A program made the position numbers and the translations under genes. The notes beneath the pieces are model-generated. The model worked only from the letters and a program-made list of their open reading frames with translations, did no database searches and was not told the DNA's origin. From a virus, in the IMG/VR virus record IMGVR_UViG_3300017934_000005, positions 32,676 through 96,675 of that record: a stretch of DNA of 64,000 bases; one strand, written 5' to 3'. Of this stretch, positions 2-21,983 are shown piece after piece. Position 1 is the stretch's first letter. Every line of letters begins with the position of its first letter.

Positions 2-1894
2 GGCCAAGCCGATTTTTTACAGCGTAAGGAGCAAGAACAGAGAGCCAATATTCCTGTTGAACCTAGTGCGGCGAAACGATATATGAGCGGTTTGTACGCA
101 ACCACACTCGGCCCAATGGCAGGTATTGGTCGAGAACTGATGGAAAAGAATGGTGATCTAATTGCTCAGGCTGCGTCTGATTATCGAGCCGGCAATCATT
201 TGCGGGCCTTCACTAAGCTCGCTTCTCTTGCGGCACCTATTTCGCCGGAAAATCCAGAAATTCAGACTGCTTCAGGTGTCGTTCAGGGCGCGATAAAGTC
301 TATGAACGATGAGTGGGGTAGAGGCATTGCACTTGGTCACCAGGGACGATATTCAGAAGCCGCTGGTCATTTGCTTGCCAGCGTGATCCCGTTTATGGGT
401 CCTGCTGCGGCTCATGCCGGCGAGAGAATGGGCGAAGGTGATATTGCTGGTGGTTTGGGAGAGGCAACTGGATTGGTTTCAACCGCAGTGAGCCCGGAAG
501 CAGCAGCTAGGGTTGTGCCAACTGTGGCTCGGGCTGCAGCTAGAGTTACGCCTGGGGCCGTTTCTGAGGCTTTAGAGCGTTCGGCTGAAGCACGCGAGGC
601 TGCTCGGGCTGCAGAGGCTGTGGAGGAGAAACCCGCTGTTGCAGGCAAGATTATCCAGGAAACCGATCCGAAGAGACTTACGGCCACAACGCGAGCCTTG
701 GGTGCTGTGGATACAACCGGTGTTAAGACTTACTCAGATTTGGCAGATACATTGGATGCCAAGATCAAGGAGAATGTGGCTAAGGTTGACGCGGCTCTTG
801 AGCCTAAAACTGGTGCGCCGCTTCCTGTCTTCAAGGGCACCGATCTAGATCGTACAATTCCAGTGGAAGGAGCCACGCCGCGAGTTGTAAATCCAGTCCG
901 AGATGCTTTGACTCAGATGCGGGATTTTTATGAAAAGACCAATGATGACGCTGAAGCCGCTCGCGTTGAAGGTTTGCAGAATAAGTTTGAGAGAACCGGA
1001 CTTTCACTCAAGGAAATTAACGATGTCGCCAGAGAGCATGGTTCGGAGCTTAGTGCTTTTAGTCCTGTGACCGGAGAATTAGCATCCGGCTTAGGCAGAC
1101 AGGCTGCAGAGAACACTCGCGCTGGTGTCAAGGATGTTATCCATAGATTTACTGATGATAAGACACGAGCCCTGGATGCTCAGACAAGTGATTTGATCAC
1201 AGCTAAAGACTTGACTCGGGATATGGAGCAACAGGTTCTTAAGTTGGAACAGAAAATTCAAGAAGCCGGCTGGGGTCAAAGATTAGCTAAATTTGTAAAG
1301 AGAACCGGTCCCGGTATGGCGGGTGGTCTACTTGCCGGTCCAATTTTAGGTATGGGCCATGTGGCTGGAGCGCTTACAGGCGGTATCTTGAATATGGTTA
1401 TCGAAGGTATGCTGGATAAGACTGGTAATCTGAATGCGGTTAAGTTACAAGCTAGATTACCAAAACTCTTGGGAGAGTTTCGGCGATTGAATGCATTGTC
1501 GCCTGAAAAGGCTCTGAGAGAATTACCGAAGGTTATTCAGGGTCCTAGTCCAGAGCCTCCTAAGGGTCCTACTCCAACCCCAACACCCGGAGGCGGCGCT
1601 GCTCCTGCCGCTCCTGCGGCCGAAGAAGAACCTGAAATTGAAATAGTTGAACCGGGAAGAGTAACGCTTGGTGGTAGTGGCGAGAGTGCTGCGTCTCAAG
1701 AAGCTATCAGTAGGCTCCGGGCTGAAGCAGGCAGGGGTATTAAGCGTTTCCGAGTCGATACGCGGTCGGGAAATCGGGTTCCACTGATTGGTGTGGATGC
1801 TATCGACGCTAAGCCCGGACCCTACGATAGAATCATAATGCGTGATGCCGAAGGACGCGAAGTCACTTTGGATCGTGGTCAGAAAGCTGCTTAA
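2..1894 (+). CDS. Large Ala/Gly-rich probable virion/ejection protein (5'-truncated by window edge)
   Basis: Frame is open from nt 2 through the 603-aa ORF. Ala/Gly-rich helical repeats, a Gly-rich hydrophobic segment and a Pro/Ala/Glu linker. It is the only long, plausibly real + strand gene and converges with the - strand block at 1894/1901. Confidence 0.5.
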   Translation, partial: GQADFLQRKEQEQRANIPVEPSAAKRYMSGLYATTLGPMAGIGRELMEKNGDLIAQAASDYRAGNHLRAFTKLASLAAPISPENPEIQTASGVVQGAIKSMNDEWGRGIALGHQGRYSEAAGHLLASVIPFMGPAAAHAGERMGEGDIAGGLGEATGLVSTAVSPEAAARVVPTVARAAARVTPGAVSEALERSAEAREAARAAEAVEEKPAVAGKIIQETDPKRLTATTRALGAVDTTGVKTYSDLADTLDAKIKENVAKVDAALEPKTGAPLPVFKGTDLDRTIPVEGATPRVVNPVRDALTQMRDFYEKTNDDAEAARVEGLQNKFERTGLSLKEINDVAREHGSELSAFSPVTGELASGLGRQAAENTRAGVKDVIHRFTDDKTRALDAQTSDLITAKDLTRDMEQQVLKLEQKIQEAGWGQRLAKFVKRTGPGMAGGLLAGPILGMGHVAGALTGGILNMVIEGMLDKTGNLNAVKLQARLPKLLGEFRRLNALSPEKALRELPKVIQGPSPEPPKGPTPTPTPGGGAAPAAPAAEEEPEIEIVEPGRVTLGGSGESAASQEAISRLRAEAGRGIKRFRVDTRSGNRVPLIGVDAIDAKPGPYDRIIMRDAEGREVTLDRGQKAA

Positions 1895-2779
1895 TGATTG
1901 TCATAAGTTGTGTGCAGCGGCGGTTCCTAGACCAAGAATTTTTCCTGCTACACACATCTTGTTAAATAATTCTTTGCACTCTTTTTCGGCGAGTGAAAAA
2001 ATCGCACCGGAGGAGAGATAGATTGTATGGTCAGTGTCATTGATGGCTACAAGATTTTCCAAGTTAAAATAGAAGAGTTGGCCATCCGAGTTTCGTGTTT
2101 GGATAAACATTAGCGAGTGACACCGACAGTGACGGTTTCTTTTTCTCCGGTCCCGCCTTCGACAGGTTTGTTCTCTTTGGAGGCTTCGGGATTATATCCT
2201 TCCCACATCGCGTCCCATTTTTCTTGACTCACGGCTTCGCCCATCGGCCTGAACTGAGCCCGACTCGCACCAGACGCTAATCGATCACCGCCGCCGTTCT
2301 GTAATTGCATTTTAATCCTCCCTTATTGTGTCAAGACTTACTTCTGCGATCTGATCCCCATCAAACCAGGTCAAGTATCCACAATCCACAGCCCAGAATC
2401 CGTTTCTTTTCATAGCTGCGATATCACTAGTTGCGTGATCCACGCTTACCTGCGTTCTTACCAGGCGAGGCATACAACCAGGTGGACACTTGAGCATCAC
2501 ATAGGCTCGAATTGGAAGTTCGTGTAACCCCAATTGTCTGCGAAGTCGAGCCTCCATCATCATCGGAGACTGAAGGAACCTATCGAAGTTTTTACGGTAA
2601 ATTTCTTCGCAGGCTATGCACTGCTCCTGAAGGATGTTATGTGGACATAGGGTCCGCTGGCGTTCCTCTTCCAGCAGACGATCTAGTAGCTTCTCCTCGT
2701 GTTCCTTCCTGATTTTCTGCTGCAGCAACTTGCGTCTGTGTCTTGCGGCGTTCATGGGCCTCTTTTGCGATTCGAAGTG

Positions 2780-3028
2780 TCATGTTTTCGGTCCTACTTT
2801 CAAAGCTTCCAAATCAAAATGTGAGACATATTCCTCGATGAATTTTTCTGCGCCTCCGCCTCGCCTTTCCGGGATGACCCACTCGTAAGCAACGAATTCT
2901 TTGTTATCGAGAGTGATTACTTCCGCCTTAGTAATAAGTACACATTCACCAGCAAATTGGTTCCAAGGCCACTCTGTAATTCGAACCATATCACCGGGTT
3001 TGTACAATGGTGTCAATTGGTCCACCAA
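2780..3028 (-). CDS. Small KOW/SH3-like hypothetical protein
   Basis: YKPGDMVRI motif; packed in operon. Confidence 0.4.
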   Translation of the reverse strand: MVDQLTPLYKPGDMVRITEWPWNQFAGECVLITKAEVITLDNKEFVAYEWVIPERRGGGAEKFIEEYVSHFDLEALKVGPKT

Positions 3029-3714
3029 CTCAGTGCTTTCTGTGTTGCGAGTTTGATTTCAGCCGGCGTAGCTGTTCGAGGAGCAGCATCAACCCAGTCT
3101 CCGTCGCCGCGCCAGAAAATGCGGGCATGTTCGCGGTCGGGAGTGAAAGTACGGGTCACGATTGTGATGGTGCCGTCGAGCGGAAAACTTTCGTGAATTT
3201 CATCCTTGTACTGCATGTAATTGCTTCCGGCTCTGTATTCTTCTTCAACGGCGCATTCTACACAAACTTTTTTAGAGTCCTCTGTTTTGAAAGCGCCTTC
3301 TCCGCATTTAATTGTGGCGGTATTGAATAATTCGATCAGGCCAGCATCTCGGCCGGCTCGAAAGGTTGAATTATCTTCCGTAATTGGTTGACCGAAGAAA
3401 TCCTTATCCAAGATTGTATAGCGTCTTTGCCTGTAGACGCCGGCAATGACTTGGGAATAGAGATGCCAGGGATGATCATGGATTGGCGATACACCAGGAA
3501 TCTTGAAATCGGAAATCCAGATGTGGAGTCGAACTGCGTCATTTAGATAGGTTCGAATCATGCCGAGTCCCTGTACGGACCACTTCAGATCGTAAGGGCT
3601 CTTGAGAACGGTTTCGACCAAGAGTCGAATCAGGTCAAACTCTTTGGTGAAGTTAGGTCTACTGACATTTGTGATGATTCGAGGACAACTTAACTCTAGG
3701 GGTTCTGTACTCAC
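3013..3714 (-). CDS. Cupin-fold (cysteine dioxygenase-like) protein
   Basis: RLHIW...IHDHPW...SQVIAG and distal EIHES metal-binding His pattern. Confidence 0.55.
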   Translation of the reverse strand: MSTEPLELSCPRIITNVSRPNFTKEFDLIRLLVETVLKSPYDLKWSVQGLGMIRTYLNDAVRLHIWISDFKIPGVSPIHDHPWHLYSQVIAGVYRQRRYTILDKDFFGQPITEDNSTFRAGRDAGLIELFNTATIKCGEGAFKTEDSKKVCVECAVEEEYRAGSNYMQYKDEIHESFPLDGTITIVTRTFTPDREHARIFWRGDGDWVDAAPRTATPAEIKLATQKALSWWTN

Positions 3715-5075
3715 TCTTCCTCCGAGATGTAAGACTCTACCGAAACGGTCTCCGGCACTTGCCCGAGTTGTTCTTTCTTCCTGGCATTGATATGTTGTAA
3801 CTTCTCCTTGGCTTCGGTCGAGATTGCCTTGCCAGGAATGACGGCAATCCGGTAATACTTCTCGATGAGTCGTCCTTTGTCAATCCAGTCCGTGATCAAC
3901 TTGATGGCTTCGTGCTTGTTGTATTCTCCGAACGGGGCTTCATTGTTAGCCTGTATGCGAGCCCCATGACGATACGCCGGCCAGTTATCTAGAGTCTTGA
4001 CCCAACCTTCGGGCTTACGTTCCCAGACTATTCCCTCTGTGATCATTTAACTAGTGGCAAGGGAATCAGAGTCCCGACTAAACTGCCGCCTGCAAATGCG
4101 ATAACGAATCCTATATAAGAATGAAATGACGAGGCTGTGGTTAGGAATAATATCGCCGCAAATGCAGCGGATAGTCGAATAAGTTTGTTTTTCATTGCTT
4201 TTCTAACTCCTCTTTCCCCTTCACAGCCCATTGAGTGGGCGCAAAGGTGACTTTGCGGTTCTGGGTATCCTTCGTGGCTCTATCCACAGCATCTGCGGCG
4301 CTATCGGCCGGCACCGTGATTTTCTCTTTGTGAACGAGTGTGACTTCGTATAGATTCGGCATGGTTCTCCTTTTTTAGACTAACATTCCAACCAAAATAC
4401 CGCCTATCACAGCTAAAACGGTTGCTGCTACCTTATCGTGAGTTATCCCCGCCACAGTTAAACAGGGTATTGATGTAAGAGCTACAAATATCCTTATGGT
4501 TTTAGAACGGATCATTTGATCACCTTGATGGCGGTGATTTCGAATTCGAACAAACGGCTTTTAATGTCTTCTGTTAGGGGCTGAACTTTGCCCATGATAT
4601 CGTTAATCAAAGCTTCTGGTGTCGGTCTAGCGCCGTTGTTTGGATGGAAATCTCGTTCGAGTTCGATTGTGACCTTCATTTTTTCCTCCCGAGTGCGTTT
4701 GCGATCTGAATTGCTTTAGCGTAAACTTGTACAGCGTAGCGTGCATCCGATATACCGGGTTGTCGGTATATCATGATCGGAGGAGTCATTAGTACGTTAA
4801 AAATTTTCCGGGTTTTTGCCATGTGTTTGTTGACACGTTTTTCTATTTCAGACCCGCTTCCGATGCCTCCGCGTTCTCTGCTCACGTTCCTACCCCATTC
4901 AGCCAGGCGATGGCGGTTTCAGTTTCGTATTCCCAATCCTTGTAACGCTCTAGGGCATCTCGGGTGTCGTGATCGAACGGCATCCGGCGAAGTTGTTGCT
5001 CCGCCCTAGCGATAGCGTCTCTGGCATTACTCAAGCTGGTATCCAAGAGCTTGCGGATTACGTCTCGTGGATTTT

Positions 5076-13767: not shown

Positions 13768-13789
13768 GCTATCCTCCTTTGAAAAGTTA

Positions 13790-14120
13790 GAGCCGGTACT
13801 CCCATTAGCTTCTTCCACTTATACGGGTGCTTATGGTGGATGTCGGCCGCTTCGTCGGGTCTTCCCCTCCACGGTCACGCTTCCCGGCTCCAGATGGGCT
13901 CACGTGAGCCCAGGTGCACCACATCTATTTATACAGCGACTCATCAGGAGTCAACTGTGTTCGGCACCATTCTGGCCGGCCTGATGCCCGGCTAGATGCC
14001 GCCTTTTGCCGACTATTGACCCCACGTCTGGTCCATTCGGTCGGCATAGATTTTAGAGCCGAATCATCGTTCGGCTCAACTCAAGAATGGCGGCGAGGGG
14101 CGTCTCCGTTGGACCCCTAC
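13790..14120 (-). ncRNA. Multi-stem structured RNA region (unknown family)
   Basis: No credible ORF. Stems: GAGCCGG/CCGGCTC, GGGCTCACGTGAGCCC palindrome, and CGCCATTCT/AGAATGGTG enclosing GAGCCGAA/TTCGGCTC, TGCCGAC/GTCGGCA and GCCGG/CCGGC hairpins. Confidence 0.5.
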
Positions 14121-14165
14121 TTTAATCCGTGACGAACAATAACGAACACAGAACCACGTTAATAG

Positions 14166-14294
14166 CGCCGATGCTGGGAGTCGAACCCAGATTCCCGCTT
14201 TACAGGAGCGGTGTCTTTCCAGAGAGCCTTTTATAAGCGCCGTCTACACGGCTTACCCTTCGCTTTGCGCAGGCTCTACTTAGACCACATCGAT
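14166..14294 (-). tRNA. tRNA-like gene (Thr-TGT-like) with 55-nt structured insertion in the D-loop
   Basis: Acceptor ATCGATG/CATCGGC, D-stem GTCT/AGAC, anticodon arm CCGCT-CCTGTAA-AGCGG, T-arm CTGGG-TTCGACT-CCCAG. Insertion 14223-14277 is closed by AGAGCCT/AGGCTCT. No encoded CCA; C at position 33. Confidence 0.75.
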
Positions 14295-14300
14295 TACCGG

Positions 14301-14442
14301 TAGGAGCCGAGGCACATTATGTGTCCTCTTTGGCGACGATCCCAGGTGCCAAGGCCGGCAGCACCGACTCTTCACGTCACCCGGACGATTATTCCTCAGC
14401 TTGGTCGGCTTCGGCTTATCGTCCCATCCTATATAGCTCCTA
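14301..14442 (-). ncRNA. Multi-stem structured RNA between the two tRNA-like genes
   Basis: Closing stem TAGGAGC/GCTCCTA enclosing GGACGAT/ATCGTCC, GGTGC/GCACC and GAGG-CAC/GTG-CCTC stems. Confidence 0.5.
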
Positions 14443-14446
14443 AATC

Positions 14447-14618
14447 GCGTCCTGGTCGGGGGTTCAACCCGCATCTCCGGTACTAGTATGCTGATTTAGA
14501 AGTTCAGCGTCTATGACCAGAATCTTTTTGTTGAGATGAATTGTTCGCGGCCCTCTACAGGGCTTACCCTTCCGCTTTTCATCTCTCAAGAGCGCAAGGC
14601 TCTTTAGACGACAGGAAT
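14447..14618 (-). ncRNA. Degenerate tRNA-like RNA (Arg-TCT-like loop) with ~93-nt expanded D-loop
   Basis: TCCTG/CAGGA acceptor, GTCT/AGAC D-stem, GCTGA-ACTTCTAAA-TCAGC arm, long variable region, CGGG-TTGAACC-CCCG T-arm. The D-loop holds a GAGATGAA/TTCATCTC stem capped by the same module as in the neighbouring tRNA-like gene. Confidence 0.6.
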
Positions 14619-14623
14619 ATCGT

Positions 14624-14872
14624 TTACAGCGTAAACTTTGGCGTAGCCTTGGCTTGCTGCGGCTTCAGAGCCATCTCAAGAGCATCGATTTCCTCGCGCA
14701 GACGAGCCACGATCTTTTCCACGTGTTCTGAAAGCGGTTTGTGATGCGCAAGCTTGCCAATAAGTTGAATACTGGCAATAGCACGAGACGTGCGAGCCTG
14801 AGCCAACTGAATGAATTTTTGTTGTTTTTCGCTGATAGCGATTTCAGTAGGTGATGCGTTTCCTGGTTTCAT
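14624..14872 (-). CDS. Small helical hypothetical phage protein
   Basis: GGAGG RBS; first gene after promoter at 14890-14918. Confidence 0.6.
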   Translation of the reverse strand: MKPGNASPTEIAISEKQQKFIQLAQARTSRAIASIQLIGKLAHHKPLSEHVEKIVARLREEIDALEMALKPQQAKATPKFTL

Positions 14873-14889
14873 CTATCCTCCACATAAAC

Positions 14890-14918
14890 AAAATACCAAA
14901 TCTCTCGCAGGTTGTCAA
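14890..14918 (-). promoter_or_regulatory. Sigma70-type promoter
   Basis: TTGACA-17 bp-TATTTT, TGG before -10. Confidence 0.75.
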
Positions 14919-14929
14919 CACTTATTTTC

Positions 14930-15203
14930 GGGAATTATAGAGTTAACTCCCCTGAAATTTCCTCAGTTGTTAAAGATCGCAGTCCAGCCTCTGTCCAATA
15001 AGATCGATCAGTTGGACAGGGTGATTGAAGAACCAGATATTGCCATTCTCCTTCCTCAAAATCTAACACTTCCATGATTCGTCCGTAAAAACCAAGATCA
15101 TCGATGAACACAACTTGGTTCTTCTTAAACTTTGGTTTCGGCTGTTTTATTTTTGGCATTGCAATCCCTTTCTTTTCTTGTGGGAGTCATCTATATAATT
15201 CCC
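14930..15203. mobile_element. Non-autonomous IS1595-family cassette (MITE/MIC 1), 274 bp
   Basis: 22-bp TIRs GGGAATTATAGAGTTAACTCCC (left identical to the IS at 51745; right 19/22); 8-bp direct repeat TTATTTTC at 14922-14929 and 15204-15211. Confidence 0.9.
14935..15159 (-). CDS. Cassette cargo: small KOW/SH3-like protein
   Basis: 74 aa filling the cassette; stop codon lies inside the TIR; similar to 47173..47370. Confidence 0.7.
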   Translation of the reverse strand: MPKIKQPKPKFKKNQVVFIDDLGFYGRIMEVLDFEEGEWQYLVLQSPCPTDRSYWTEAGLRSLTTEEISGELTL

Positions 15204-17487: not shown

Positions 17488-18090
17488 TCATTCACCTTTT
17501 CCTTCCGCATCTTTCTCGAAAGTCTTCTTGAACAGAGTTTTCGTAGCTTGGTGATAAACTACAATTCCTTCGGGCTGCATAAACCCTGGAGCAGTCACAC
17601 TCCCTCCCAGGCGTAATCCATTCATCGCGGCTTCAATAGCCGAGGTTTCGAATAAACCTTCATAAAGAATGGGCACGACTCCACAGTAGGCTGGTCGTTG
17701 GTCTCGACCATCCCGCCAGCGATTCACGTTGAAGAGACTGAATCTCTTTTCGCTGAGACCATACCGACGCTGAATTCCGAGACCCCACCACTCCCCGAAA
17801 TGATGCCCAGGTCCGAGTTGGAGAAGTTCGTCTCGATGTTCGTGAGCCCACTTGGAAAAACCATAGTTGTCATCGGAAGGAGTAATCCAGCGGGTCCGTG
17901 AGCCTGTGAGAAAGAGACCTGCATCCCCGTTTTCCTCGCTGCCAATATAGATGCTCGCATTGGTTCCATCGATCTTCTTCGTGATCGTACAGCCGCGACT
18001 TAGCCTCCCGATCTTCGGCATTGGCTTAAACTCCGGTAGTGGCGGAGTACCAGAATTACACTCTGGAGTACCACAAAAATATGTCGTCAT
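17488..18090 (-). CDS. ATP-dependent RNA ligase (Rnl2-like adenylation domain)
   Basis: KIDGTN (motif I), GSR, FGEWWG, FSLFN, PEGIVV, terminal KK. Confidence 0.85.
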   Translation of the reverse strand: MTTYFCGTPECNSGTPPLPEFKPMPKIGRLSRGCTITKKIDGTNASIYIGSEENGDAGLFLTGSRTRWITPSDDNYGFSKWAHEHRDELLQLGPGHHFGEWWGLGIQRRYGLSEKRFSLFNVNRWRDGRDQRPAYCGVVPILYEGLFETSAIEAAMNGLRLGGSVTAPGFMQPEGIVVYHQATKTLFKKTFEKDAEGKGE

Positions 18091-18091
18091 G

Positions 18092-18817
18092 TTAGTCTAA
18101 GCTCCCGTCTGCAGTTCCTAGCTGCTTGTAAGACTCGATTCCCAACGCTTTCGGACAACGACAATTTGGCCCACAAATGTGATTTAACAACCGGAGCCGA
18201 CGACGTTCAGCTTTTTCGACTTCTAAAGCAAGTTCTTCTTGGAACGCAAGTCTCGCCGCGACTGGACCGCGTGCCTGGTACTTATCTGGATCGGCAATGA
18301 ACTCCTCCAATTCGACCGGCTTGTAATCGGTGTACTCCACAGCAAACAAACGTTGCCACGGATTATAAAGCTTGCCGGTTCGAGTAAACCGCTCGGTTTC
18401 TGGTTCGTTCTTATGGAAACCGTGCCAGATGTTGTGAAGGTGACCGTGAATATTCAGATCACATCCGCCTGGTAGTGACTTCGCCGGCTTGTGCGTGAAC
18501 CAAATGTGCCGGAAGATCATGGCATCGCAAGCGAAGTCAAATCCGTTCTGCATCCACCAGGTACAGTTATGGTGCCAATCATGGTTGCCACGAATCAACA
18601 TCTTCCGGCCTGGAAGCGAAGGATAGATCGCCTTCCATCCCGCTGGCGGGCCAATAAAAACGTCGCCGGCACAGATAACTAAGTCTTGAGGCTGAACCAC
18701 GGTCTGCCAATTGTGAACGATCAGGTCCGTAAAATTCCGGGGCCGATCACAATAGGTCTCGATCTTGCTGTGATTCAGGTGTGGATCGCTAATTATCCAA
18801 GTTTTCGGTGCGCTCAT
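18092..18817 (-). CDS. Calcineurin-like metallophosphoesterase
   Basis: SDPHLNH, GD, RGNHD, THKP, HGHLH. Confidence 0.9.
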   Translation of the reverse strand: MSAPKTWIISDPHLNHSKIETYCDRPRNFTDLIVHNWQTVVQPQDLVICAGDVFIGPPAGWKAIYPSLPGRKMLIRGNHDWHHNCTWWMQNGFDFACDAMIFRHIWFTHKPAKSLPGGCDLNIHGHLHNIWHGFHKNEPETERFTRTGKLYNPWQRLFAVEYTDYKPVELEEFIADPDKYQARGPVAARLAFQEELALEVEKAERRRLRLLNHICGPNCRCPKALGIESYKQLGTADGSLD

Positions 18818-19552: not shown

Positions 19553-20474
19553 GCGCCCTTCTTCAAAACTTTGACTACATCGATAAGAATACCACCAATG
19601 ATAAGAAGTAATATGACCGTAAGAATCGGATGATTTGATGCGAAATTAAGTATAGTGCTCATGCGCCCTCCGCGACCGAATGTGTGTTGTGGTGACCGAA
19701 ATCAACCAGGTGATGTGAGTCCTCCTCCCGGGCCGGAATCTCGGCCATGACTACGCCTGGACAAAGTGGTTCAATCATTTGTTCAATGATTGTACCTGGT
19801 GTAGTTTTTTCCATTAAAGCGTTGTATGCCTGTTGCCCATAGTCAAGAGTATCTTCAAGATTTTTGATTTTTAACTCCATTTCCCTCATAGCAATATCGT
19901 CTGCTTGTTTAAGAACGCCCAATGCTTCGATTTGAGCGTCGTAGGCACCCAGAAGAACCCTGATGCGATCCGGCGTCACGTAGAGACCGGCCGCAAGATT
20001 GAGACGAAGTTGGCGAATGCTCTCCTCAGGAGTCTCGACACGGACTTCCTTGACTTCTCTGACCTGACTCGCTCTCGCTGTTTTGCTTAACTCAGCCATT
20101 GGTTCATGTTCCTTTCCAGGATTTGAATCCATTCCTCTCGAATCTCGTCTTGAATCACTGGGTCAATACCATCCCACTCATCACCTATACCACCGCGATC
20201 ACTCAGGTCCGCGATGATTTCATCCACTGCAGCTTCATATCGCTCTCTCATATCTTTGTCATGTCTTCGGTCTTGGATTTTTCCTCGGCAATCTCAAAGA
20301 CTTTGTGAGTGAATTCAGCCAGGGAGTCATCAATTTCTTCCTGATATTGTTGATAGTACACAGTCCACCAGTGTAACCAGATATTCTTCATGATTTTCTC
20401 CCAATCAGCTTGAGAGATAGTGTCAAATTCAGCCGGTTTATCCGGTACATTGATTGCAGCTTCAATCGCTATCT

Positions 20475-20815
20475 TCATTTGGGACCCCACGTGAAACAAC
20501 GTTTGTAAACTTCTCTGGCTTTTTGACTTCGGCGCTTTCCAAAATAAGGCATTAGCAGAGTTAAAACCTTCACAATGTCAGATTTTTTCTTTGTACGCCA
20601 GCGAAGTGACGGGCTGTGTTTACGATTCTTGGGTTTCCATAAACGAAGATGCCCGACTTTCACAATCCTTAAAAACCGTCTGACCACATCGCGGTCTTTC
20701 ATTCCTAATGCGAGCCCGGAGTCTTGCATTTGCCAGCTATGAAAATACAACCTTCACCCTCGAACAGGCCAGCAGCCCAAGCAATTTCTCTTGTTCTAAT
20801 CTTTGTACGGATCAT
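20475..20815 (-). pseudogene. Frameshifted LAGLIDADG homing endonuclease
   Basis: ATG at 20815 gives MIRTKIRTREIAWAAGLFEGEGCI..., which stops at ~20706. The continuation LALGMKDRDVVRRF...LMPYFGKRR is in the -1 frame. Confidence 0.75.
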
Positions 20816-21983
20816 ACTCCTCACTACCGGCCATTGCCACACCTAAGGGTTTCAAGGTATGGAGAATTCTGATCGTGGGTCCCATTTCACGGAGTACATC
20901 AGGCAATCGCTTGTAGCAATCTGGGCTTTCATCCAGACCGGAACCGCGAAGCTCAATACCGGATTGGGTCAGCCAAGAATTCATCATAGCATTCGTTACT
21001 CTGCCCGGCCTGGTTATCTCTCCAGTTTTCCGATTTCGTTTGCCCGCCGCTTCCATTCGACCCATCACCCTCCCTGCACCATGGACGGTAGAGTAAAAAG
21101 TGCGTTCGGACTCAAAACCGGCTTCGGCTCCTTCGATGATAACTGCCGACTCAGCCATAGTGCCTCCAACAAATCCTCTCTGTCCGGGAAACGCAGGAGT
21201 CGCACCTTTTCGTACAACATACAGGTCTTTGCCATTGTGTTTTTCGAGCCAGGAAAAATTGTGATGGTTGTGGACCTGTTCAAGAATCTGTCCTCCTATG
21301 ATATTAGCCACTTTCTGGCAGACCCAATCACGGCCAGCGTAGGCGTACCATCCCGCCAACTGCATAGCTTCCTGATACTGCACCCCCAGATCAGAGCAAG
21401 CATCCAAAACCAAGGGCTCGACATCCATACCGTCTTTCGCGCCTCCAGCCTTCAGAAACCAAGTCGCGGTCTTGTGTCCAAGTCCACGGGAACCAAAGTG
21501 AACACCTACCCAGATGCGCTCAAGTTCATCCTCGAAGATGTCAACGTAGTGATTCCCCGAGCCCACGGTACCAAGCTGGTCCTGGGCTAAGTCCTTCAGG
21601 TCTTTGTTGGCTTCAAGATGCCAAAGATTCGCGTCATCGAACATAGGGTGATCAATGACACTAGCATTTTTCCGGCCAATGCCGAAACTGATTTCTTTCC
21701 AAACAGAATCCATAAGCCGGCTAATATTTTCACGCACGTACTGAACAGGAACATCGAGACGAACAGCTTTGTTACCGCAGCCGATGTCATACCCGACGCC
21801 AGATGGAGAGATAGCATTTTCATAAGCTAGAACGCCTCCTATTGGAACCGCATAGCCTTTGTGGTGATCGGCCATCAGTGCTGCGCCCACGACTCGAGGA
21901 TCACGGGCGCATGTTATGATCTGAACCAGTGCGCCGTGATCCATAGGCCAACCATAGACCGGGATGTTCTCAACGATGTGCAT
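20796..21983 (-). CDS. rtcB: RtcB-family RNA ligase
   Basis: MADHHKGY, VGYDIGCG, GTVGSGNHY, HFGSRG, HNHHN, RKGAT, HGAGR, DESPDCYK. Confidence 0.95.
   Translation of the reverse strand: MHIVENIPVYGWPMDHGALVQIITCARDPRVVGAALMADHHKGYAVPIGGVLAYENAISPSGVGYDIGCGNKAVRLDVPVQYVRENISRLMDSVWKEISFGIGRKNASVIDHPMFDDANLWHLEANKDLKDLAQDQLGTVGSGNHYVDIFEDELERIWVGVHFGSRGLGHKTATWFLKAGGAKDGMDVEPLVLDACSDLGVQYQEAMQLAGWYAYAGRDWVCQKVANIIGGQILEQVHNHHNFSWLEKHNGKDLYVVRKGATPAFPGQRGFVGGTMAESAVIIEGAEAGFESERTFYSTVHGAGRVMGRMEAAGKRNRKTGEITRPGRVTNAMMNSWLTQSGIELRGSGLDESPDCYKRLPDVLREMGPTIRILHTLKPLGVAMAGSEEYDPYKD

Follow-up and report, generated by a model that had tools for sequence, protein, structure and literature searches.

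Additional RNAs with no explained role are a known feature of phage tRNA arrays. In T4, the species 1 and 2 RNAs are stable non-tRNA RNAs that are co-transcribed with the phage tRNA clusters. Functional RNAs are also found fused to tRNA-like carriers, as in tmRNA, the bacterial YrlA Y RNAs, the tRNA-miRNA units of the herpesvirus MHV68 and engineered tRNA scaffolds. To our knowledge, in carriers of this kind it is the anticodon or acceptor region that is replaced or extended, never the D-loop.

Here we describe a phage RNA island in which a conserved hairpin module occupies the D-loop of a tRNA-shaped unit. As with the T4 RNAs, structured RNAs lie between tRNA-shaped units on what would be one transcript, from which, we propose, tRNA-processing enzymes release them; two other phage contigs (L023 and L087) carry the module in exactly such array positions. 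Unlike in the T4 clusters, the extra RNA lies inside the tRNA D-loop, and the island is located 40 kb from the main tRNA array and follows a promoter of its own and a protein-coding gene. With the tRNA-like carriers it would share a tRNA-shaped body that provides processing and stability for another RNA element. The island also resembles the GOLLD and ROOL RNAs in being a large structured non-coding phage region beside tRNA-like sequence, but it has no sequence or structure match and is modular rather than one RNA. Finally, two reports describe archaeal tRNA introns at unusual positions, the D-arm region included (PMC4090602, PMC3241643). Such introns are comparable in that they interrupt a tRNA gene at a place other than the anticodon loop, in a genome that also encodes an RtcB ligase; in contrast to them, the present insertion shows no bulge-helix-bulge, and the phage has no splicing endonuclease.

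Setting of the RNA island

The window, that is, the whole 64,000-nucleotide stretch that was analysed, corresponds to bases 32676-96675 of an IMG/VR virus record of 96.7 kb that is about 94% complete. The public sequencing runs containing it are wetland DNA metagenomes. Its SLT lysis gene, sigma-70 promoter and Shine-Dalgarno sites are clues that point to a bacterial host. Every gene surrounding the island lies on the - strand, in the order promoter, 82-aa ORF, gap of ~850 nt and SLT gene, and the gene-free island itself spans window positions 13777-14623 (- strand). Two features precede it:

14890..14918, - strand: sigma-70-type promoter, with -35 TTGACA, 17-nt spacer, extended TG and -10 TATTTT
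14624..14872, - strand: first cistron, an ORF for a conserved small protein of 82 aa with five homologues (70-90% identity)

Read in its own direction (14918..14890), the promoter matches the sigma-70-type consensus at 10 of 12 positions, with a perfect -35 box, and the original prediction had correctly placed the island downstream of it. Five promoter-like sites were found in the region, compared with 1.7 expected from shuffles. The promoter would drive both the 82-aa ORF and the RNA island; its presence and the absence of a - strand terminator from the gap are in favour of one transcript. Directly upstream of it lies a 274-bp element (window 14930-15203) with 22-nt inverted repeats that are 86% complementary.

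The 82-aa protein gave no match in Pfam, PHROG or PDB and no atlas lead. The gene at the far end of the gap encodes a lytic transglycosylase (Pfam SLT, 1.7e-16) with a signal-peptide-like start. Between these two genes, only ORFs of 30-77 aa were found, without convincing ribosome-binding sites, and in variant contigs from four wetland runs these short ORFs were cut by indels that are not multiples of three and by deletions of whole units. Thus, the stretch holds no credible ORF, as had been proposed.

A tRNA-shaped unit with a loaded D-loop

The two tRNA-like units of the island are as follows:

14166..14294, - strand: unit 2, a tRNA-Thr(UGU)-type cloverleaf interrupted in the D-loop, identified by ARAGORN after excision and by covariation
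14223..14277, - strand: the D-loop insertion of unit 2, 55 nt, with a 6-bp outer stem, an internal loop, an inner stem and the module as cap
14445..14618, - strand: unit 1, a decayed tRNA-like paralogue of unit 2 with a homologous 5' half

Standard ARAGORN called no tRNA gene in the window. Left uncut, unit 2 scored 18.2 bits with the Rfam tRNA model (RF00005), against a threshold of 29, and the match (14229..14174) covered model positions 9-63 only, without the acceptor stem. When the 55-nt hairpin, which interrupts the variable D-loop region, was removed in silico, ARAGORN recognized a canonical 75-nt tRNA-Thr(tgt) with a 10-nt D-loop containing GG. The resulting cloverleaf has a 7-position acceptor stem, a 4-bp D stem, an anticodon arm with a contiguous 5-bp stem, a 7-nt loop and the anticodon UGU, and a perfect T arm with a UUCGA-type loop. 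The alternative call made by ARAGORN in intron mode, a tRNA-Tyr with a 63-nt intron, was rejected as an artefact, since it breaks the contiguous anticodon stem. Another call, a tRNA-Tyr with a 264-nt intron at 20258-20615 of the record, also looks false.

A scan for the conserved hairpin tip revealed the same D-loop design in two more metagenomic phage contigs. One of them (L024) yielded a tRNA-Gln(ttg) with ARAGORN after excision; its source phage is related to the window phage (seven proteins at 35-72% identity) and carries the unit elsewhere in the genome. The other (L034) is of the Thr(CGU) type and has an 8-nt T loop. The three D-loop insertions are 47-55 nt long. In an alignment of the three sequences, 95.9% of the cells were paired, compared with 35-51% in controls in which the structure was shifted by one to three columns. 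Both sides changed in 11 of the 34 pairs, and these double changes were located in the acceptor, anticodon and T stems and in the insertion stems. The retention of all helices through 11 double changes indicates that the loaded D-loop design has been kept by selection since a single ancestral insertion.

The loaded tRNAs differ from the working tRNAs of the phage. Unit 2 ends in GCUA, with no encoded CCA, and has an A:C mismatch at 1:72 and a C at position 33, so that the encoded CCA, U33 and paired 1:72 of a working decoder are all missing. None of the three tRNAs with D-loop insertions encodes CCA, all show a mismatch or wobble at 1:72, and two of them have C33. By comparison, all 20 ordinary tRNAs of the phage (record bases 291-4705, outside the window) encode CCA, and 19 of the 20 have U33. 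It is possible that CCA is added to unit 2 after transcription. In general, the lack of CCA, the C33 and the weak 1:72 pair fit carriers better than decoders. The ordinary array contains no Thr, Leu, Pro, His, Cys or Tyr tRNA.

In both related contigs, a second cloverleaf-shaped RNA lies directly upstream of the loaded tRNA (L024:1-100; L034, reverse strand, about 160-270). Its parts are an acceptor-like stem, a first arm that is large and covaries, a short arm with a 4-5-nt loop in place of the anticodon loop, and a T-like arm; it is only partly like unit 1.

For its part, unit 1 shares with unit 2 the 5' half, which comprises the acceptor side, the D stem, the start of the insertion and the module. 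Its D-loop insertion (~85 nt) carries the module, and it keeps the D stem, an anticodon-like arm with an irregular loop containing UCU, and a T-like arm with a non-standard loop. It scored 43 bits with model R2, with many non-standard pairs, and no cloverleaf was called by ARAGORN even after removal of the insertion. In a related strain the unit is absent, with 13 other letters in its place (joint 14434>14624). Of the two tRNA-like units originally predicted, then, unit 2 is a canonical tRNA-Thr once the insertion is excised, and unit 1 is a decayed relative only.

A portable 23-nt module

The tips of both D-loop insertions are formed by the only long direct repeat of the region, a common element that the original prediction did not describe:

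14550..14572, - strand: module copy 1, 47.2 bits with model R1
14239..14261, - strand: module copy 2, 54.5 bits with model R1

In the module, a 5-bp stem with a 4-nt loop is joined on the 5' side by a purine-rich bulge of 9 nt, and all bases of the 3' side are paired. When viral, genome and metagenome collections were scanned with patterns, true instances were located in at least 14 distinct places, and a 15th, with one bulge base changed, was found in a 300-kb phage contig. Every instance caps a hairpin stem whose sequence differs from case to case. Among 14 instances, the three innermost pairs of this closing stem were paired in practically every case, and each of them showed 4 to 7 double changes; the covariation score was 0.607, compared with 0.153 for shuffles, a value reached by 0 of 500 of them. 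The 23-nt core is nearly invariant and all flanks differ; the invariance of the core is partly by construction, since it was fixed in the scan patterns.

The orientation of the module is always that of the genes and of transcription, and it was observed in three contexts. It occurs in tRNA D-loops (the window, L024 and L034), in slots of phage tRNA arrays (L023 and L087), in one case starting directly after a CCA end, and on long terminator-like stems followed by T-runs (L004, L027 and L035). The terminator-like hairpins follow late genes or lie between two of them, for example portal or terminase. A related arrangement was noticed just upstream of a large terminase gene, where an RNA of ~190 nt with a 12-bp closing stem, followed by a T-run, carries the module at the tip of an inner hairpin (L007:2860-3060, identical in L003, L006, L026 and L029). 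The tRNA array of L023 (750-1705) comprises six tRNA-Leu and one tRNA-Tyr, and a second, non-tRNA hairpin shares the slot of the module hairpin.

The carriers of the module are unrelated soil and wetland phages. Besides the window phage, four viral records contain it, with exactly one copy each; none of the four encodes RtcB, and two are complete. Two matches in Acidobacteriota MAGs hint at this phylum as the host. In 50,697 records of cultured phages, blastn found no true match to the island or to the module. With the bulge left free, the looser pattern retrieved mostly antisense of coding sequence, plus one true variant; with the loop left free, it gave at least 118 matches, and among those listed two passed the stem filter, neither of them convincing.

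Several functions were considered for the module and discarded. A role as RNA anti-CRISPR, by mimicry of a solitary repeat, was rejected because only single matches, and no arrays, were present in 185,579 species genomes; likewise, model R1 found single matches in 151 Terriglobia genomes, mostly within coding sequence, among them five weak extra ones, of which all but one lay in coding sequence. Mimicry of the 3' end of 16S rRNA was also rejected, the local alignment being no better than those of shuffles (p 0.30). No antisense targets of the bulge beyond chance were detected in the phage's own genome.

Folding of the island and its division into units

The whole stretch folded with a z value of -3.45 on both strands, and none of 20 dinucleotide shuffles folded as well, so the predicted density of structure withstood comparison with shuffled controls. 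The values for the sub-domains, all on the - strand, were -3.56 (14300-14443, with three inner hairpins), -3.95 (13963-14095), -2.4 (13893-13962) and -2.1 (13786-13892). The 70-nt spacer 14094-14163 was unstructured (z +0.2, - strand). Apart from the tRNA-like units, these features were distinguished:

14301..14442, - strand: middle domain, ~140 nt, self-contained, with three hairpins and an 8-bp closing stem
13954..14141, - strand: large multi-branch domain, ~190 nt, with a 9-bp long-range closure (14133-14141 with 13954-13962)
13896..13911, no strand assigned: 16-bp perfect palindrome with a CACGTG centre, between two RNA domains
13790..13890, - strand: 3' domain with a 7-bp closing stem, ending few bases before the SLT ribosome-binding site

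The original prediction had described three of these structures, and each was recovered in folding. The middle domain is closed by the TAGGAGC/GCTCCTA stem named there and folds on its own. So does the three-hairpin junction proposed at ~13965-14093 (here about 13967-14089), which is enclosed by the 9-bp closure of the multi-branch domain. The 3' domain, with its GAGCCGG/CCGGCTC closing stem, lies just 5' of the SLT ribosome-binding site as claimed; in strain variants the changes in its inner part were not compensatory, and only the closing stem is therefore supported. The palindrome, which folds as an 8-bp hairpin, could act as such in the RNA or be a protein-binding site on the DNA.

One variant contig carries the middle domain on its own, flanked by an A-run on one side and a T-run on the other, and the sequence there differs by 13 substitutions and 7 gap positions. 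It had no Rfam match, and a 22-nt piece of it gave no matches in the viral scan. No homologue of the non-tRNA domains was found by blastn against all the collected loci. Thermodynamics and cassette-like behaviour are what suggest that the middle, multi-branch and 3' domains may be functional RNAs. Covariation among homologues, on which the original prediction depended, was present in the cloverleaf, the insertion stem and the closing stem of the module, and none was seen in the variants of the 3' domain.

Infernal searches against Rfam (4227 families) yielded no family at the gathering threshold over the 64 kb, and between 13300 and 15200, with E values of up to 10, the only relevant match was the weak tRNA. 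In related strains, variant joints skipped 13928-14050 and 14080-14362. Seven more distant relatives bearing the SLT gene have no gap, tRNA or module in front of it, and the module was absent from five of these records as a whole. The gain and loss of units, together with the seven relatives without the island, indicates an accessory cassette of independent RNA genes.

These data bear on the two readings offered by the original prediction, that is, one large ornate RNA or a polycistronic array. Dense structure and a tRNA neighbourhood are typical of the GOLLD and ROOL families and would suit a single ornate RNA of 830 nt. However, no Rfam family matched even with the permissive E value, domains are deleted, replaced or standing alone in close relatives, and the spacer is unstructured, so that we consider a single RNA very improbable. 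An array punctuated by tRNA-like units fits the anatomy, and the loss or replacement of whole units in relatives, together with the absence of an Rfam match, argues for a mosaic of independent RNA genes. The island would thus be a string of at least five self-contained RNA units, presumably co-transcribed, a reading that forms part of the carrier model considered next.

A carrier model and its alternatives

In each of its three contexts, the module would end up at the tip of a small stable RNA, which favours a carrier model. The island would then be a processed array in which tRNA bodies display a portable module to a partner, and we regard this as having about an even chance of being right. 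Transcription from the promoter would generate the island as one RNA string, which RNase P and 3' trimming, by the tRNA-processing enzymes of the host, would cut at the tRNA-shaped units; we infer both steps from the sequence. These cuts would separate the small-protein mRNA, the small RNAs and the SLT mRNA. The D-loop insertion might, more speculatively, be retained in the RNA, and the tRNA body or the hairpin would serve as a nuclease-resistant carrier, showing the module to its partner in trans. In the other contexts, the hairpin in an array slot between two tRNAs would be freed by the same processing cuts, and the terminator hairpin with the module would survive as a 3' fragment.

The partner would most likely be a host or phage protein, for which the module might speculatively be a decoy or a handle. 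A more specific version, in which the module is a portable RNA decoy or handle that captures a host protein, e.g., a defence or RNA-surveillance factor, and the D-loop tRNA is its natural scaffold, is put forward only tentatively and appears rather doubtful. No protein family was common to all the module-bearing phages, and the Endonuclease VII family was common to some only. The phage was searched for a reverse transcriptase, a Ro/TROVE protein and a tRNA splicing endonuclease (PF01974), all of which were absent.

Some findings speak against the carrier model. Compensatory changes have preserved the 5 bp and the 7-nt loops of the anticodon arms, and no other tRNA of the phage is a tRNA-Thr; both observations would fit a working tRNA too. 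In addition, an RNA end-healing and sealing set encoded 3-7 kb away keeps a splicing or repair reading alive:

17488-18090, - strand: RNA ligase of the Rnl2 family, adjoining the metallophosphoesterase
18092-18817, - strand: metallophosphoesterase, calcineurin-like
20796-21983, - strand: RtcB

The main alternative to the carrier model is that the D-loop insertion is an intron, cut by an endonuclease, after which the exons are sealed by RtcB or by the Rnl2-type ligase and the phosphoesterase. Excision does restore a canonical tRNA with a D-loop of normal length, none of the 20 ordinary phage tRNAs reads Thr codons, unit 2 being the sole tRNA-Thr, and the phage encodes all three enzymes; moreover, RtcB is missing in five relatives that lack the island. 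However, the insertion boundaries are simply the base of a plain stem, and the module also caps hairpins that need no splicing and is carried by phages without RtcB. An archaeal-type intron spliced by proteins was rejected, as there is neither a bulge-helix-bulge nor PF01974 in the phage, and so was a group I or II intron, since 47-55 nt is far too small for self-splicing, which takes a catalytic core that is a few hundred nucleotides long, and none of the intron models in Rfam gave a match. With its acceptor end, its 1:72 mismatch and its C33 also unlike those of the working tRNAs of the phage, unit 2 is unlikely to be spliced. If the D-loop extension were instead kept in a working tRNA, it might shield the elbow from a host nuclease that targets tRNAs or recruit phage repair enzymes. 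Compensatory changes have preserved the cloverleaf, anticodons have changed between relatives in the manner of evolving tRNAs, and the phage is rich in RNA repair genes, all of which would agree with this. Nevertheless, it speaks against decoding that unit 2 lacks CCA, has C33 and is weakly paired at the top of its acceptor stem, the module is found away from tRNAs too, and a 50-nt hairpin at the tRNA elbow should clash with the ribosome sites that grip it, and we therefore think a working tRNA quite unlikely.

It could also be argued that the tRNA-like units derive from tRNA genes that are now dead and that received a small selfish hairpin element, and that the island is decaying filler devoid of function. 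Unit 1 is clearly degenerate, the units come and go among strains, and the module is always located in hairpin loops, as would be the case for a loop-seeking insertion. Against this, three lineages have kept all the helices of cloverleaf and insertion with double changes accumulated since a single ancestral event, and the core of the module is nearly invariant among flanks that all differ. Furthermore, no target duplications or common ends surround the module, and there is one copy per genome, not many. A selfish origin with functionless remains is thus improbable.

We found no description in the literature of a tRNA that is otherwise complete and bears a conserved module in its D-loop. The module is a short and well-defined RNA element, known from 14 independent contexts and with strong covariation, and unit 2 offers a natural test case both for a tRNA body as carrier and for bacteriophage tRNA splicing by RtcB. 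Whichever of the two proves right, phage biology would gain a new type of tRNA-derived RNA. If the scaffold reading is true, unit 2 would be a natural "tRNA scaffold," a way of expressing functional RNA so far known only from engineering; should the module bind a host factor, this could bring to light a new interaction between phage and host in soils rich in Acidobacteria.

A mimic of the tmRNA or YrlA type was also considered for the tRNA-like units and was rejected, given that ARAGORN found no tmRNA, Rfam gave no match and the phage has no TROVE domain. In a distant relative of the phage, ARAGORN predicted a permuted tmRNA whose tag has 27 residues (L052:5946-6365, - strand).
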